From sequence record OZ346212.1: 64,000 bases of DNA. One strand, 5' to 3'. The first letter of the stretch is position 1; every line of letters starts with the position of its first letter. Below the pieces are notes generated by a model. It saw only the letters and a program-made list of their open reading frames with translations, made no database searches and was not told where the DNA came from. The DNA comes from a phage. This document shows, piece after piece, positions 1,521-63,750 of this stretch. Both the position numbers and the translations under genes were made by a program.

Positions 1521-3944
1521 ATGAGCATGTGGTCGTTCGACTTTGAGTCATCCGGTTTGCTGGAAGACCCAGATCTTTATTATCACTGCGGCCTGTTTAA
1601 AGAGCTGAATAAGAACCGTTTTATGCTGTTCCTTCCTCTAAATGACCGCACACACTACTCCGAGGAGGATATAGAAAAGGCTAAGAACTTCATTCTGGCA
1701 AAGAAAACTCTTTATAAAGATTTTGAAGTTCGCATAGCAGATTTTTCAGAGTTGGAAGGTTGGCTTACAGGAAATTCTGACTGGTCACCAACAGCTTTGA
1801 ACTGCCATAACTGCTACAGTTATGACTTTATGCTGATGGAAAGATTATCTGGTATTCATTTTGATATGTTCCGTGATCCTAAGTGTATGGGGACTATCAA
1901 CGATCACCAGGTTAACCTGTTTGATACGTTGGCGATGAGCCGAATCTTGTGGCCTGATCGCCCTTTACCAAAAGGTTGTCCGGACTCTGTATTCAACCCG
2001 GTTACTAAGAAAATGCAGCCTGTTGGTCCTCACGGCCTTATGGCATGGGGCTACGCCCTTGGTAACCAGAAAGTTCAAATTGATGACTGGCGCGATCTTC
2101 CGTTATGGAAGTATGTGGATCGTGTATTTGAGGACGTTATCATCCAGGAGCTGCTCTGGAAAGAGCTGGTAGCGGAATCAAAAGGTGTATTCTACGGCAA
2201 ATCTGACATGCAGAACTTTATGTACGATCCTGCCAAAGAGAAGCCGAAAGGGTTCAAGAAGATCACCTGGAAGAACGCATTACGTCGAGGCATGTTGCAG
2301 CACTTCCTGATGGAGCTGCAGGCCCGTCAGGGTGTATACTTCGACATAGATGGGGCTATTGCTTTACGTGACCGCTGCGATGCGTGGATGAAAGAGATCG
2401 CTGATCGTGTTGAACCACAACTGCCTTTAAAAGAGCTGTCAATGTCTCAGCGGCCCAAGTTCCCTGAAAAGCCGTTTAACCAAGATGGGACAATCTCTAA
2501 TAATGGTTGGAAATGGTTAAAAGATAAGCTTGGCTATCCTGTGGACATGAGTGCTTTAGAGTTCAAAGCCCCACCTAAGCGAGCATTTACCTCTACAGGA
2601 GATGTCAGTAAGATGGGGATAAAATGGTGTGAAGAGATGGGCTGCAAAGACCACGATAAGATGGCTGATTTCTTGAGAGGTTATATTAAGGGCACCTCCA
2701 CACCACAACCTTTACCTAAAGAGCTGATGGATCAGGCAATAAGCGATCTGCAACAGAAGCGAATGCCTGACTGCAAGATACCTATGAAAATCAGCAATCA
2801 GGACGACATTAAGCGATACCTGATCAGTGCTGGTTGGCTTCCGACAATGTGGAGAACTAAGGATGTAACTAAGGACAGCAAGAAGAAAGCTCTACCTGAT
2901 GCAGATGTTGATGCACGAGTATATGCATACATGGACGAGCTTTTAGAGTCAGAGTATTGTGACCTAATTATCAACTTCTGGAACAAAACTGATGCTAAGT
3001 TTCAGACAACAGTGCACAAGTTCCGAAGCTTTCCTAACTCCGAAAGGATTAAAAAGGAAGTGTTCGGGAAAATACGCAGAAAAGCCAGGGCACTTATTAC
3101 TTCTCCGCAACTGAAAGATACGTTTGGACACCTATGTCCGAATCTTGAAAAATTGAACGGAGAGATGGCTAAAGATATCGTCTTGTGGTTATCATTGCGA
3201 AACCGCAGATCGGTCCTTGATCCAATCAAGGAGGATAAGGTTGATACTGGTCTTCTTAATCACCCACGTTTGAAGATTGACCATAAGCTTCCTGCTAAAA
3301 GCTCTGGATTAACAAACACTTCCCGACAGAAACACAGTATTTGTGCAAACATGCCTAAACCATCTCCTAAAGTGGTTATGGGTAAAGAGATGCGTAGCTT
3401 GTGGGGTGTTCCTCCTGGATACTTTGAGATCGGTATTGACGGGTCCAACTTAGAGCAGCTTATCGGGGCTTGGGGTGCCTTTGAGTTCGACAACGGCTTG
3501 TACTATGATGTTGTAAGTAACGGGGACGCACACCAAAACAATGCTGAGGCATATACAAAAGTAGCAGGCAGAGAGGTGTCTCGTAACGACGGTAAACCTA
3601 TCACGTATGGGGTTATGTACGGGGCACAAAAAGATAAAGTTGCAGATATGCTGGATATCTCCCCAGAGTTGGGGCAAAGGGTGATCGATGCACTTTGGGA
3701 TGCCAACCCAGGTCTTAAGGGGCGCAAAGAGGATCTGGAGAAATTCTGGGAAGCAACAGGTAAGAAGTTTATCTACTCTTTTGATGGTCATGCTATCTGG
3801 ACCCGATCTAAACACTCTTTACTTAATGCATACCAACAAAATGGCGGCGCATCGTTGTGTGACTTAGTTGGGATACTCATGCACCATCAAATGGTGAAGC
3901 GTGGGTGGTACGATGAAGGTGTTCGTCGTATTATCTATTACCAT
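1521..3944 (+). CDS. DNA polymerase family A, exon 1
   Basis: RBS AAGGAG before ATG 1521; Exo I FDFESSG; motif B KPITYGVMYGAQ; ORF ends at the His that should start motif C (HDE). Confidence 0.85.
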
Positions 3945-4786
3945 AAATAACATTGTGGCTTCGTGCAGTGATGCACGTCGAAAACCTCTTTAATTGACGG
4001 GAAGGCTAAGTTGACTTTTACACCTAAACATGGTAAAAGCTCAATATGCTAATCCGCAGCGAAGACTAAAGGGGTGTAGTTAAAATGGCTAGATCAGTTG
4101 AGTATCACGGATATACCGTGTTTGATGATGGAACAATACCTTTATCGAAACGTGATCATACAACAATGTTTTGTTTTGATAATGGTCGAGGTTACCTTTG
4201 CGTAACCATGTTCATCGAGGGGAAGCAGTGCACAAAAGGTGTCCACCACTTGGTTGCTGAATGCTTTGTATCAAACCCTGATCCTGAAAGGCTCACATGG
4301 GTGAACCATAAGGACGGAAACAAATACAACAATGCATACTGGAACCTTGAATGGACCACCCCTGGTGGAAATATCAAACACGCTTATGATAATGACCTCA
4401 GAGTAAGGCCAGTCGGTGAGTATAATGCCAACGCTGTACTGACCGAGGATGAGGTAACGGAGATTTGCGAACTGTTACAAAGTGGTTTACGACAATGCGA
4501 GATTAGGGATCTTGGGTATCCTTATGAGACGGTCAGAGCCATAAAGCAAAGAAGACAGTGGAAACATATCTCTAAAAACTACACCTGGTAGTAACGTTCA
4601 GAGACTATCGAAAGCATAGCGCCAACATAAATTGGTGCGAAGAAGCGAGTAGAGTAGACCAGCAAGTGCGGTCGAAATGGGAGGTGCCTTGGTAACAAGG
4701 TAGTGAGATAGTCCGATCCATACAGGAAACTGTATGGCTGTGCACGTAATGGTGCGGGGTAGCTTAACGACCTACCTGAACTATTG
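3945..4786 (+). mobile_element. group I intron interrupting DNA polymerase motif C
   Basis: Exon 1 ends in T3944, intron ends in G4786; P/Q/R/S-like elements at 3994, 4051-4060 (AATCCGCAGC), 4596-4610 (GTTCAGAGACTATCG), 4705-4714 (GAGATAGTCC); contains HNH ORF. Confidence 0.7.
4085..4591 (+). CDS. HNH homing endonuclease (intron-encoded)
   Basis: RBS AAAGGGG; HNH signature NHKDGNKYNNAYWNLEW; located inside intron. Confidence 0.8.
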   Translation: MARSVEYHGYTVFDDGTIPLSKRDHTTMFCFDNGRGYLCVTMFIEGKQCTKGVHHLVAECFVSNPDPERLTWVNHKDGNKYNNAYWNLEWTTPGGNIKHAYDNDLRVRPVGEYNANAVLTEDEVTEICELLQSGLRQCEIRDLGYPYETVRAIKQRRQWKHISKNYTW

Positions 4787-37051: not shown

Positions 37052-37113
37052 TTGGCACCTCCTCTGCTTTCATTACGGCAATTATAACCAACTCAACAAA
37101 GCTTTGTCAACAA

Positions 37114-37587
37114 CTAGTCTACCTGAACCCAACCGCCTGATACTTTTTTAAACATTCTTTGGTTATCACTGCCTCGGAACGGTTTCTTGGTTGGTAAATC
37201 TTTTACATACTTACCGTCAATGATGATATCAGCCAGTTTAATAACATCACTAGAGATATGGTCAAATGTGAACCCAGTATATACAAGAATAGTTTTCTTG
37301 TCACCAAATTTTTCCTTAATTTTCTCCATCAGGCTAATAATATCTGGCTCATTATAGTATGCTAAGGGTTCTCCACCCAGTAGAGAGATACCGCACACAG
37401 ACGGGTTATCTAAATCTGACAAGATTTTTTGCAAGTCTTCTTCAGTGAACTTCCTCCCCTTATCTTTTGACCAAAATGCCTGATTAAAGCAACCAGGGCA
37501 AGCGTGTGGGCACCCAGATACCCACAAGGCAGTTCTAATACCTGGTCCTTCGGTGTAAGATATTTCTGTGTATCCAGCAATGTTCAT
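37114..37587 (-). CDS. nrdG: anaerobic ribonucleotide reductase activating protein
   Basis: Radical-SAM cluster motif CPHACPGC. Confidence 0.8.
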   Translation of the reverse strand: MNIAGYTEISYTEGPGIRTALWVSGCPHACPGCFNQAFWSKDKGRKFTEEDLQKILSDLDNPSVCGISLLGGEPLAYYNEPDIISLMEKIKEKFGDKKTILVYTGFTFDHISSDVIKLADIIIDGKYVKDLPTKKPFRGSDNQRMFKKVSGGWVQVD

Positions 37588-37700
37588 AGATACTCCGCAT
37601 CACATTTAGGGCAATGCCAAATAAAATCGTCTAGTGCCTTGCACCAACGAAGATTACAACTACAGCCGCACTTGCAAATTTTATAAATACCTGATGACAT
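37584..37700 (-). CDS. small Cys-rich zinc-ribbon protein (38 aa)
   Basis: Not in ORF track; RBS AGGAGG; CxCxCxC...CxxC; stop overlaps nrdG start (ATGA). Confidence 0.5.
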   Translation of the reverse strand: MSSGIYKICKCGCSCNLRWCKALDDFIWHCPKCDAEYL

Positions 37701-37763
37701 ACTGCACCTCCTAGCTCACTGTGTGTCAATAATATGCCACATCCTTGTGGCTTTTGTCAAGAA

Positions 37764-39035
37764 TCAGCAACCACAACTTCCGTAGTGCTTAACTCGCTCG
37801 ATAACTTCCGCTTGCTTACCTTTATTGTAAGGACGGGAGTTAGGACTGGAAAGGTATCCAGACACACGTCGAATTACACTGATCGTTCCCTCTTCATGGT
37901 TTCCACACTCTGGGCATACAAAGCCTTTAGCTGTTGCACTGAACTCACCAGAGAAACCACACTTGAGACATTTATCCACAGGTTGGTTAATACCAAAATA
38001 CATAATGTGTTTATACCCGAAGTCAACAAGAGCCTCTAAAGCATCCAGGTTGTTTTTCAGGTTAGGTGTTTCTACGTATCCGATGTTGCCACCAGAGGAT
38101 ATCATAGCAAAACCTTCTTCATACTCCCACTTATCAAAAGGAGAGCTATTGATCCATACTGGCTGATGGAAACTGTTGGTGAGATATTCATGCTCGTGCT
38201 TCAACACTTCAGGATATTCACGATCCAGACAGGTTGCAGCTTTATAGCATAGACTCTCAGAAGGGGTGCCGTACAAACTAAACGCTAGTCTACTTTTCTT
38301 CTTGTATCGCTCACAAGCATCTCTCATGTGCTGAAGTATTCCAAGAGCTAAAGCCTTGTCACCCTCTCTGCCCAAAATCTGACAGGTTTCATACACACCA
38401 ATATACCCAATACTGATGGAAGCGTACCCGTCATAGAAGAGTTTATCAATACTCTCTTCAGGATCCAGGCGAGCAAGAGCGCCTTCACACCACATGATAG
38501 GGTTCTGCCCTGCCTTAGTGCCTTTCAGACGGTTAACCCTTACAAGGTGAGCTTCATATGCCAAATCCAGATACTCGTCAAGAACGGAAAAGAAATCAAC
38601 ACCTTCCGTCTTAGCTTTTGCCGCAATCATTGGCAGGTTAAGACTAACAACACCCAAGTTGAATCTGCCGAGGTATTTCTCCTCACCTGTTTCCAAGTCA
38701 TTGTATTTGCTAAGAAAACTCCGGCAACCCATGCTCGTTACTTTACCATCTGTCGAGCCTGTCACTTTACGATTTAGTGGAACAGAAACAAAGTCAGGAT
38801 AAATCCGCTCTGCAGAGCATTCCAGAGCTAATCGTTTCAAATCATAGTTAGGATCTCCAGGGTTCATGTTGACACCCTCTTCTAGGAAGAACAACACTTT
38901 AGGGAACACAGGTGTGATACGTTCTTCACCAAGACCCATTTTGTGGACTTTCAAGTAGTTTTTGGTAATCATTCTACCAAAGACTGAGGTGTCCAGACCT
39001 AAACTTAATGTGATGAATGGAGTCTGCTGTCTCCT
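37764..39035 (-). CDS. nrdD: anaerobic ribonucleotide reductase NrdD, exon 2
   Basis: Glycyl-radical motif RRVSGYL near C-terminus; frame open upstream of the track start to 39065. Confidence 0.8.
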   Translation of the reverse strand, partial: RRQQTPFITLSLGLDTSVFGRMITKNYLKVHKMGLGEERITPVFPKVLFFLEEGVNMNPGDPNYDLKRLALECSAERIYPDFVSVPLNRKVTGSTDGKVTSMGCRSFLSKYNDLETGEEKYLGRFNLGVVSLNLPMIAAKAKTEGVDFFSVLDEYLDLAYEAHLVRVNRLKGTKAGQNPIMWCEGALARLDPEESIDKLFYDGYASISIGYIGVYETCQILGREGDKALALGILQHMRDACERYKKKSRLAFSLYGTPSESLCYKAATCLDREYPEVLKHEHEYLTNSFHQPVWINSSPFDKWEYEEGFAMISSGGNIGYVETPNLKNNLDALEALVDFGYKHIMYFGINQPVDKCLKCGFSGEFSATAKGFVCPECGNHEEGTISVIRRVSGYLSSPNSRPYNKGKQAEVIERVKHYGSCGC

Positions 39036-39832
39036 CCCTGTGTTTCCACAGGGCCAGACTATCTCTTACTCTACTTCAATAAGATAATAACCCTTTATTG
39101 TGAGATGCTTACCTTCGGCATTTCCTTCGATAGCCCTATGAACGTTACCTACGTTCAAATTTAAGGCTTTTGCACAGGCATAGAGTGAAGGATATTCACC
39201 CACCAAGGTTTTACCTTTGTATGCCTGCACTTTCCTATAGCACTTACCTGGACAAAGTCCTGTTCGGAAAGCATGTCTCTTATTATCTTCCGGCAAAACC
39301 CACTCTAGGTTAGACGGATGATCATTCAATGTATTGCCATCTTTATGATTCACTTCCCAGTTTTCAGGGTCTTCTGGGACATCCGGCAAACAATACAAGG
39401 CAACAATCCTTGAGGTTTGGATTCGAATCTTTTTACCTTTGTGGTTGAAAGAGTACATATAACGGCGTTTAACATGCTTGTTACCTTTTCCATAACCTCC
39501 CCACAATATTGGGTGTAGCATTCCACGTTTTCCGTATACGTTTCCAACCTCATCAATCACATAGTTTGATTCTTCACCATTAAGAATGATCTTTTTCATA
39601 GAGCCTCTCCATTTCGAAGTTAGTATTTCAACTAACCCCTACACTACTTGGTTCAGAAATGTTTGTCAAGCATTTCTGCCTTTCGTTAGTCGTTACAACC
39701 GTTCCAACTCCTGTAAGAACTAGTCACGGGATTGGCATAGCTTTCGCCTTAGCGTTCCCCGTTAGCCGGATTTACCGACCCCTCTTATGAGGTTAGGAGA
39801 GTTTTACAACGGCCAGTTTGTTAACCGTTGAC
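39036..39832 (-). mobile_element. group I intron in nrdD
   Basis: 5' intron core contains ACGGGGAAC...CAATCCCGTG as in T4 td/nrdB/nrdD introns; ends in G before exon 2; HNH ORF inside. Confidence 0.7.
39066..39599 (-). CDS. HNH homing endonuclease (intron-encoded)
   Basis: NHKDGNTLNDHPSNLEWV; paralog of the HNH at 4085..4591. Confidence 0.8.
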   Translation of the reverse strand: MKKIILNGEESNYVIDEVGNVYGKRGMLHPILWGGYGKGNKHVKRRYMYSFNHKGKKIRIQTSRIVALYCLPDVPEDPENWEVNHKDGNTLNDHPSNLEWVLPEDNKRHAFRTGLCPGKCYRKVQAYKGKTLVGEYPSLYACAKALNLNVGNVHRAIEGNAEGKHLTIKGYYLIEVE

Positions 39833-40684
39833 AGAAGTTAACGTGTTGATTTGATAGAGCAAAGTCTGCATGCTGTCAAATACGTCTTTATCTGTCATTT
39901 GCATTGCAACAGTTTCAGCATCCGGCAACCAATGTTCCTGGCAAAATTTAAGGTTCTTCTCATAGGTTGCTTCAGCATACTGTGCCAGATAATGATCAAT
40001 ATGGCTCATAGTCTGACCACCATATTGAGCACTAGCTACCGCACTAGAGATTTGGCTAAGGATTGTTGTTGCAACCCCTATTGACTTCGGCTTACTGACA
40101 TGGGCGTTACCAATGTTGAATCCGTTTTCCAACATATCTGGATAATTTACCAAACAACAGTTTGTTAACGGACTGATCAAGTAGTCAAGATCATGCACAT
40201 GGATGAATCCTTTATTGTGCTCTTCGGAGACACGGTCTGGCAGGATCTGTGTTGATGCAAGGTGTTTGCTAAGAATACCTGCAAGCAGGTCGCGATGAGT
40301 GTGTACATGATTAGTAGGCTTATTTGCGTTTTCTTTTGTAAATTCATCACAAGTTCGATCCAAGAAGCCACTAATATCTGCAAGCAGTTTTCCACCTGCC
40401 TCTCTGTTATTATCTCTTGTCTGTCTATACTGGATGTATTCTCTGGCTGCACATTTTAAACCCATATCCATAAGAGCATCTTCAACAAGGATATGGATAT
40501 TTTTTACAGAGATCGTGCACTGGTCGGTTGGTAGATTGTTAGCAACAACTTCATTAACCGCGCAGGCGATCCGGTAAGCTTCTTCTTCAGTATGTCCAGA
40601 CTCAAGTAAGGCGGACTCTGCCGCCTTGATCACCTTAATTCCGTTATAGAACTCTTCTCTACCGTCCCGTTTTACAACTTTCAC
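39833..40684 (-). CDS. nrdD: anaerobic ribonucleotide reductase NrdD, exon 1
   Basis: N-terminal ATP-cone MKVVKRDGREEFYNGIKVIKA; exon end placed at TCT (Ser), boundary +/- a few codons. Confidence 0.8.
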
Positions 40685-63584: not shown

Positions 63585-63659
63585 GCCCTGTTAGCTTAGT
63601 GGATAAAGCAGCGGCCTTCTAAGCCGTTGACACTGGTTCGAGTCCAGTACGGGGTGCCA
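63585..63659 (+). tRNA. tRNA-Arg (anticodon TCT)
   Basis: Cloverleaf folded by hand: acceptor GCCCTGT/ACGGGGT, D-stem GCTT/AAGC, anticodon loop CTTCTAA, T-loop TTCGAGT, encoded CCA. Confidence 0.8.
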
Positions 63660-63663
63660 AATT

Positions 63664-63750
63664 GGGGAGTTATCCCGTAGAGGTAGCGGTGTAGACTGTA
63701 AATCTATTGTCATTGCGACTCGGGTGGTTCGACTCCACCACTCCCCACCA
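63664..63750 (+). tRNA. tRNA-Tyr (anticodon GTA)
   Basis: Acceptor GGGGAGT/ACTCCCC, anticodon loop CTGTAAA, long variable arm, T-loop TTCGACT, encoded CCA. Confidence 0.8.

Follow-up and report, generated by a model that had tools for sequence, protein, structure and literature searches.

A group I intron of subgroup IA2 with an I-HmuI-like endonuclease gene as the probable interruption of nrdD in an rV5-like phage

In the 64,000-nucleotide stretch of phage sequence record OZ346212.1 (hereafter the window, to whose first letter coordinates refer unless another source is named), nrdD, the gene of the class III ribonucleotide reductase, is found in two pieces on the minus strand. We consider it very probable that the interruption is a 797-nt group I intron of subgroup IA2 that carries a gene for an I-HmuI-like HNH endonuclease and splices itself out of the transcript, giving a 707-aa NrdD. 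This reading rests on the exact boundaries of the intron, on its fold and the conservation of that fold, on the family of the open reading frame (ORF) inside it and the selection acting on this ORF, and on the presence/absence polymorphism at the site; self-splicing, endonuclease activity and homing are predictions from sequence. The element is an ordinary mobile element of an already known and already annotated kind, and the only features which are mildly unusual are two hairpins that follow helix P3 and a series of empty, ORF-less and ORF-bearing alleles at one site.

The two pieces of nrdD and the intron boundaries

The minus strand of the window holds nrdA, nrdB, a glutaredoxin gene, the interrupted nrdD and nrdG. 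Two ORFs of this strand, at 39821..40684 (287 aa) and 37764..38972 (402 aa), had been taken in the initial annotation for the ATP-cone and glycyl-radical halves of NrdD. Both were found, with a third ORF (39066..39599, 177 aa) between them, and the Pfam domains agreed with the two labels: the first piece contained the ATP-cone and positions 1–154 of the NRDD profile, and the second piece, read from 39065, contained positions 155–562 and Gly_radical. The two segments abut exactly in the profile and nrdD is therefore a single gene cut at a single point. The joined NrdD was similar over its full length to that of T4 (1h78; E 4e-165) and to PDB 9d3x (E 2e-161), and it unites an ATP-cone, the NRDD barrel and a C-terminal glycyl-radical domain in one chain, with NrdG encoded next to it, as corresponds to a class III NrdD. 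The source of the window is classed here as a Vequintavirus, an rV5-like coliphage; its 3-kb nrdD region was 99.7% identical to that of Escherichia phage magaca and 94–98% identical to those of many other Vequintavirus (rV5-like) genomes.

For the placement of the boundaries, the exons were joined at the junction implied in the initial annotation and searched against the phage collection. Murica, rV5_ev156, CarlMeissner, nimi and other Vequintaviruses gave a contiguous match that was 9 nt shorter than the joined query. At this site intronless Murica reads ACT TCT GTC AAC GGG CAA ACC CCA TTC (surrounding target sequence, GTCAACGGGCAAACCCCATTC). The corresponding sequence of the window is GTC AAC GGT | TAA where the intron begins and GGAGACAG | CAG ACT CCA TTC where it ends. 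The 5' splice site is thus located after T39824 (AACGGT|TAA), so that nrdD is split after codon 287, and the 3' splice site after G39027. The coding sequence (CDS) joined at 39824|39026 has 861 + 1263 = 2124 nt, the same length as the intronless Murica nrdD. Precise removal of the intron restores an uninterrupted, conserved reading frame whose 707-aa product, with LTSVNG|QTPFITL at the junction, is collinear with the proteins of Murica, T4 and PDB 9d3x. The exon-2 start previously proposed at 39035 (RRQQTPF) lies 9 nt too early, its residues RRQ (39035..39027) being intron sequence. The differences between intron-bearing and empty alleles at the site are synonymous (GGT|CAG ACT versus GGG CAA ACC), and T instead of G is needed at GGT in the intron-bearing allele because the U·G pair at the splice site requires it.

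A 3' splice site after G39036, with exon 2 beginning AGG AGA CAG and three extra residues (RRQ) in the protein, would be a rival placement of the same intron. The reading frame is open there, G39036 closes the P9 hairpin and the Rfam alignment stops at 39036. However, the 9 nt and their three residues are missing from the intronless alleles and from all solved homologues; keeping them opens a three-residue gap (NG---QTPF) against T4 NrdD and PDB 9d3x, and the alignments with both, which had been suggested as a check of the joined product, became collinear and gap-free once this tail was left out. In addition, phage FV3 has a 1-nt insertion within the tail that would break the frame, which shows that these 9 nt are non-coding. 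The tails of the sister introns, also of 9 nt, are unrelated (UGGGGACCG, GUGGGGCCG), and each of them ends in G before CAA/CAG ACC. Finally, the CUG of the guide pairs with the CAG of the corrected exon-2 start and not with the AGG of the alternative one. We give the upstream site very little chance. The initial annotation was correct in ending the intron with a G, since a G precedes both the 39036 and the 39027 junctions, and the real one is 39027|39026. It had also noticed that the exon-2 frame stays open upstream to 39065. This is so, and the preceding codon is the TAA (39066..39068) of the HNH ORF, which shares the frame of exon 2 and is parted from it only by this stop; the frame appears open to 39065 because the ORF ends right there.

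Secondary structure of the intron and its conservation

The T4 td and nrdD introns served as homologous templates for reading the fold, which was then tried on natural variants (eight sequences from three lineages), among them ORF-less sister introns of 257 nt (the HR form) and 277 nt (L104). The pairs were tabulated helix by helix across the variants because MAFFT misaligns the diverged P7.1–P8 region of the HR-type introns. The same program aligned the blocks AACGACUA, GUAGGG, CGAAAYG and AGAUAGUCUG with the introns of T4 td, nrdB and nrdD and of phi92. The positions of all elements are given in Table 1.

A complete catalytic core was found, with the P3/P7 pseudoknot, the P4–P6 domain, P8 and J8/7. 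The P1 pairing, with U·G at the cleavage site, was identical in all eight variants, and the ligated exons AACGGU|CAG form nine contiguous pairs with the guide CUGGCCGUU. The intron ends in G and its P10 is contiguous with P1; the position of this 3' end is fixed independently by the intronless alleles. P1, P3–P9, P7.1 and P7.2 were free of mismatches throughout the variants save for one swap in L104, where G·U became A·C at the last pair of P4, the only non-standard pair. Two-sided compensatory changes were present in P3, in hairpin b, in P6 and in P9. The ORF-less sister has CUCUGC/GCAGGG in P3, where position 5 changes from C-G to G-C, and in P9 positions 2 and 3 change from C-G to U-A (CCUUGUG/CAUAAGG in HR, CUUUGUG/CACAAAG in L104). 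P7.1 and P8 have been replaced entirely in some variants with the pairing kept: L104 has a wholly different P7.1 stem (GUGC/GCAC) and, as P8, a compact 6-bp hairpin (AGCAUC-UGGGA-GAUGCU). Every single change led to G·U or A-U, as in the P8 of FV3 (ACUCUAU, G·U to A-U).

A P7.1 and a P7.2 that follow P7 and precede the 3' strand of P3, joined by GUA, form together with the lack of P2 the pattern that places phage introns in subgroup IA2 (PMC3428280). This pattern was found in the nrdD intron of the window, and the T4 td and nrdD introns have the same layout of P7.1, GUA and P7.2. Additionally, the unconstrained minimum free energy fold of the 257-nt ORF-less form recovered P1, the long-range P3, P4–P6, P7.1, P7.2, P8 and P9, with a z-score of −3.5, and none of 200 shuffled sequences folded as well.

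Between P3 and the UAA joiner that precedes P4, two small hairpins are present that have no counterpart in the introns of T4 td and nrdD. They are flanked by UAAC on both sides and have been retained through one- and two-sided changes in HR, L021 and L104. A canonical P3 formed by the strand right before UAA-P4 (CCGGC / GCUGGC, aligned by MAFFT to T4 UCUGCC) was also considered and was rejected, there being no complementary 3' partner in either variant.

Table 1. Coordinates of the nrdD exons, the intron and its structural elements, and the adjoining nrdG gene
Feature	Coordinates	Strand	Description
nrdD exon 1	39824..40684	-	287 codons, 861 nt; GTG start overlapping the glutaredoxin stop; ends GTC AAC GGT
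Group I intron, subgroup IA2	39027..39823	-	797 nt; first codon in-frame TAA, last base G39027
P1	39808..39829	-	exon AACGGU (39829..39824) / guide GCCGUU (39813..39808), U39824·G at the splice site
P10	CUG 39816..39814 with exon-2 CAG 39026..39024	-	3 bp, contiguous with P1
P3, 5' strand	39796..39801	-	CUCUCC; partner GGAGAG 39610..39605, 190 nt downstream
Pair of small hairpins after P3, before the UAA joiner	39765..39792	-	CCUC/GAGG and GUCGG/CCGGC
P4-P5-P5a-P6 domain	39701..39762	-	td-type signature ACGGGGAAC...CAAUCCCGUG; UAA joiner, then P4 ACGGGG/UCCCGU
P7, 5' strand	39687..39691	-	GACUA; partner UAGUC 39061..39057
P7.1-GUA-P7.2	39616..39678	-	P7.1 (39678..39654) CAGAAAUG/CAUUUCUG; GUA 39642..39640; P7.2 (39639..39616) GGGGUUAGU/ACUAACUUC; then GAAAU and the 3' strand of P3
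P3, 3' strand	39605..39610	-	GGAGAG; doubles as Shine-Dalgarno of the HNH ORF
P8, 5' strand	39598..39604	-	GCUCUAU, includes A and U of the ORF start codon AUG; partner GUAGAGU 39074..39068 (last ORF codons)
HNH ORF, I-HmuI-like	39066..39599	-	177 aa; fills the P8 loop
J8/7 and P7, 3' strand	39057..39067	-	AAGAGA (overlaps the ORF stop codon) and UAGUC
P9 hairpin and 9-nt tail	39027..39053	-	CCCUGUG-GAAA-CACAGGG; tail AGGAGACAG with terminal G
nrdD exon 2	37764..39026	-	420 codons and stop, 1263 nt; starts CAG ACT CCA TTC (QTPF)
nrdG activase gene	37114..37587	-	adjoins nrdD; from the ORF list and Pfam

Core signature and Rfam scores

A single copy of the signature ACGGGGAAC..CAATCCCGTG is present in the window, at 39725..39762 (-), and none was found in 100 shuffles. 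The initial annotation had equated it with the core signature of the T4 td, nrdB and nrdD introns. The td intron has indeed the identical signature, that of T4 nrdD is a near variant (ACGGGAAAC..CAATCCGTTG), and the nrdB intron gave no exact match. The td-type signature was present in 83 IMG/VR contigs, mostly in other introns; it is a common mark of phage IA-type cores and nothing peculiar to the nrdD locus.

When the whole window was scanned with Rfam at gathering thresholds, only two tRNAs were obtained and the intron was missed. The gathering threshold of RF00028 is 50 bits and the intron, for which a group I scan had been proposed from the outset, surfaces only in E-value mode, with a match at 27.8 bits (E 1e-4) that is below this threshold and is distorted by the 534-nt ORF. 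RF00028 gave partial as well as full-length hits. The match in the window and those of the ORF-less forms were full-length, the latter with 29.8 bits (E 1e-5) for the 257-nt HR form and 32.9 bits (E 1.5e-6) for L104. As controls, the T4 introns of td and nrdB scored 40.3 and 35.7 bits, respectively, both under 50, and that of T4 nrdD 105 bits. Splicing of the T4 td and nrdB introns has been proven experimentally and, as these also remain below the threshold, a sub-threshold RF00028 score is weak evidence either way.

The intron-encoded HNH endonuclease

The ORF contained in the P8 loop matched Pfam HNH_3 with 29.3 bits (cutoff 24.8) and phrog_59 with an E value of 1.5e-26. Residues 8–159 of I-HmuI (PDB 1u3e; E 2.7e-4) aligned with its residues 8–160, so that similarity to a characterised enzyme extends over nearly the full length, and the catalytic motif VNHKDGN...NLEW is conserved. 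Outside the nrdD of Vequintaviruses, the best relatives of the protein had 30–45% identity. The ORF had 30 variable codons among seven phages; 26 of the 30 varied only synonymously and four changed the amino acid, which indicates that the HNH protein is under purifying selection. The interpretation given in the initial annotation, a group I intron in nrdD that carries an HNH endonuclease gene, is supported.

The Shine-Dalgarno sequence of the ORF (GGAGAGG) is the 3' strand of P3, the AUG falls within the 5' strand of P8, and P8 and J8/7 contain the last codons and the stop. Since the ribosome-binding site, the start and the stop are all inside these elements, folding of the ribozyme and translation of its ORF should exclude each other, in parallel with the T4 introns.

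The nrdD intron had been described as the second of the window, with a paralogous endonuclease. Another group I intron is in fact located at 3935..4736 (+), where it interrupts a family A DNA polymerase gene (1521..3950, resuming at about 4737). It matched RF00028 over its full length (39.1 bits, E 3e-8) and has a 168-aa HNH ORF (4085..4591) in the P6 loop. The two HNH proteins belong to the same broad family, phrog_59, and share 42% identity over 64 residues only, in addition to occupying different loops (P8 and P6); the term paralogous is therefore generous.

Distribution of the intron among Vequintaviruses

Among about 120 Vequintavirus records, about 28 had the ORF-bearing intron, 14 the ORF-less sister, and the others an empty site. 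The ORF-bearing intron was about 99% identical among the phages that have it, and thus more conserved than the surrounding 3-kb nrdD region, in which these phages were 94–98% identical to the window. The 257-nt ORF-less form was found at the same site in the 14 records and in one IMG/VR contig (examples are HeinrichReichert, navn, A147 and L021). A more distant phage has the 277-nt form at the same nrdD codon boundary (L104, 8505..8781 of the 121-kb contig IMGVR_UViG_3300045988_157310). The latter was the one useful more distant relative obtained when IMG/VR was scanned with a P7-based pattern; a scan with the intron-specific pattern GGCTAACGGGGAACGCTAAGG gave one contig only, from another Vequintavirus.

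The presence/absence polymorphism and the near identity of the intron in diverged genomes correspond to the behaviour of a mobile element and, together with the purifying selection on the ORF, give indirect support for cleavage of the empty allele and for homing. P8 is compact in both ORF-less forms, and the plain 6-bp P8 hairpin of L104 fits the addition of the ORF to a pre-existing ribozyme. It is possible, and in our opinion unlikely, that the two post-P3 hairpins are an undescribed functional peripheral element or that the allele series is able to reconstruct the invasion of a ribozyme by an endonuclease gene. If either were true, this would be a useful small model locus, but no new kind of element.

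A second intron site exists in the nrdD of these phages, about 310 nt downstream (at about 38715), between the codons for SMG and CRSFL of exon 2, and it is empty in the window. It is filled by an ORF-bearing intron in phita32, JEP1 and 'Campylobacter' phage C2 and by an ORF-less one in phi92, which is annotated there as 'spliced variant' and matched RF00028 with 70.6 bits; positions of introns at this site are L003 3484..4233 and L005 about 1877..2141. The intron of this second site is closely related to that of T4 nrdD (sunY) and directly precedes the codon for Cys in the MGCRSFL motif. Several of the GenBank MG0656xx records titled 'Campylobacter phage' (e.g. A147, C2, D1) are near-identical E. 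coli Vequintaviruses flagged as UNVERIFIED, and their host labels are probably wrong.

Proposed splicing and homing

We propose that a single pre-mRNA would cover the nrdA-nrdB-grx-nrdD-nrdG block and that the intron (39823..39027) would remove itself from it. The guide would pair with the exon-1 end AACGGU, with the U·G pair at the cleavage site, and with the exon-2 CAG. Free guanosine bound at P7 would attack after U39824, the terminal G39027 would then occupy the guanosine site, and ligation of the exons would give the 707-aa NrdD. In unspliced RNA, the in-frame TAA at the start of the intron would halt ribosomes at the exon-intron boundary; an in-frame TAA is also the first intron codon in all three T4 introns. 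The folded ribozyme would mask HNH translation, with the ribosome-binding site in the 3' strand of P3 and the AUG in P8. Once made, the HNH enzyme would presumably nick or cut the intronless nrdD of co-infecting Vequintaviruses near AACGGG|CAAACC, and repair from the intron-bearing genome would copy the intron into the empty allele.

Several points weigh against the interpretation as a self-splicing IA2 intron. P10 has only 3 bp in the window, and in the sister introns only 2. The two hairpins insert some 30 nt after P3, where the canonical group I plan has only the joiner before P4. The covariation comes from three lineages only and its statistical power is for this reason limited. The RF00028 scores (27.8–32.9 bits) are below the curated threshold of 50, the HNH protein resembles I-HmuI only weakly (E 2.7e-4), and the splicing of nrdD is itself deduced.

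These points were considered together with two other explanations. The first is that an unspliced homing-endonuclease cassette has left nrdD as a gene in pieces, whose ATP-cone and glycyl-radical halves assemble in trans. A reported precedent is the NrdA of Aeromonas phage Aeh1, split by mobE (PMC7344957); moreover, many GenBank records, including that of the closest relative, magaca, have two separate nrdD CDSs, and the ATG at 38972 starts a 402-aa ORF. However, compensatory changes have preserved the full ribozyme core, also in the versions of 257 and 277 nt that lack the endonuclease gene, which would be pointless for a mere cassette. In the second piece, the earliest ATG is found 18 codons into the conserved fold and a start there would remove QTPFITLSLGLDTSVFGR; the sequence at this ATG is ordinary coding sequence common to the intronless allele. 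When the exons are joined at the boundaries, the protein obtained is exactly collinear with uninterrupted NrdD. A gene in pieces would have no ribozyme and a second piece with its own start at the break, and this is not the situation found. A NrdD of two polypeptides is thus highly improbable, given the ribozyme core of the ORF-less versions and the position of that ATG. The second and least probable explanation, that splicing has been lost and nrdD is a tolerated pseudogene with a decayed intron, the class III reductase being dispensable aerobically in a phage that also has nrdAB, would agree with the low Rfam score, the unusual insertion beside P3 and the nrdAB genes of the window, and it is disfavoured by the intact full-length ORFs of both exons (94–98% identical to functional-looking intronless alleles), by the lack of disruptive helix changes in the eight variants and by the purifying selection on the endonuclease ORF.

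Comparison with known introns

The closest counterparts of the IA2 intron described here are those of MaxBurger Bas54 (MZ501093, 98.3% identical), FV3, FFH2 and slur16, with an intron that is 98–99% identical, the same site and HNH ORF and no difference of substance. HeinrichReichert Bas58 (MZ501073) has the ORF-less form. In the BASEL records (e.g. MZ501093) nrdD is entered as a join of two pieces, inside which a 'putative homing endonuclease' is nested, and the BASEL paper set intron boundaries by comparative genomics. The magaca and FV3-type records, in contrast, have two separate nrdD CDSs and no join. The rV5 paper describes terminase introns only, the nrdD intron not being among them, and our literature search found no paper with fold, subgroup or splicing data for the latter. 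In phages, nrdD is the reductase gene most commonly found split (PMC3653736).

The T4 td intron, also of subgroup IA2 and encoding I-TevI, shares the identical P4/J5-4 signature (ACGGGGAAC..CAAUCCCGUG) and the order P7, P7.1, GUA, P7.2, GAAAY, 3' strand of P3 and P8, followed by AGAUAGUC. Both introns open with UAA. The ribosome-binding site of the td ORF is buried in RNA structure, and the same is read here from the sequence. The host gene, thymidylate synthase, is different, td has a P2 and the nrdD intron none, the td ORF is of the GIY-YIG family and lies in the P6 loop instead of an HNH ORF in P8, and the two extra post-P3 hairpins are found only in the nrdD intron.

The T4 nrdD (sunY) intron has in common the host gene, the IA class and the conserved 3' core blocks. 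It differs in its site, 32 nt upstream and inside the Tyr180 codon, whereas the intron of the window is inserted between the codons equivalent to Gly190 and Gln191. In addition, the T4 core is contiguous and different, and its GIY-YIG ORF (I-TevII) is downstream of P9. With another site and another ORF family, the intron studied here is not an orthologue of it; the true relatives of the T4 nrdD intron in Vequintaviruses are those at the second nrdD site (phi92, phita32).

Further IA2 introns in phage genes of DNA metabolism are those of the DNA polymerases of Bacillus phages SPO1 and SP82 (I-HmuI and I-HmuII) and others that have nicking HNH enzymes, in Pf-WMP3 (I-PfoP3I) and Twort (I-TwoI). 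The Pf-WMP3 intron resembles that of nrdD in having no P2. Enzymes of the I-HmuI type, of which I-HmuI itself is the nicking enzyme of the SPO1 polymerase intron, are likewise two-domain HNH proteins of about 175 aa. The protein of the nrdD intron is distant from them (E 2.7e-4), and its host gene and target site are others. As in Aeh1 nrdA/mobE, a ribonucleotide reductase gene is broken by an HNH endonuclease gene (PMC7344957); unlike that system, which has no ribozyme and no splicing, the ORF is flanked here by a complete group I core.

Regarding annotation, nrdD in this and in many related records should be a single CDS, complement(join(37764..39026, 39824..40684)), of 707 aa. The intron adds a further case to the endonuclease-bearing IA2 introns inserted in the most conserved codons of phage nucleotide-metabolism genes. 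The three states of the site in similar Vequintaviruses and the T4-like intron site nearby would make a convenient system for studies on homing and intron gain. No new principle is involved and the understanding of such elements is unchanged.

Other features of the window

A perfect sigma-70-type consensus (TTGACA-18-TATAAT, 12/12) was located just downstream of nrdG, at 37081..37110 (-). Another site of this type, with 10/12 matches and an extended TG, closely follows the nrdD stop, at 37731..37760 (-), and precedes a 38-codon ORF (37584..37700) that overlaps the start of nrdG. A third candidate, seen by eye within the enlarged P7.1 (TTGACA-17-TAGTGT), was discarded, as its second hexamer is too weak and the scan missed it; no claim is made for it. 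The two tRNA genes identified with Rfam are on the plus strand, at 63585..63656 and 63666..63745; the latter has a long variable arm and its score is barely over the threshold.

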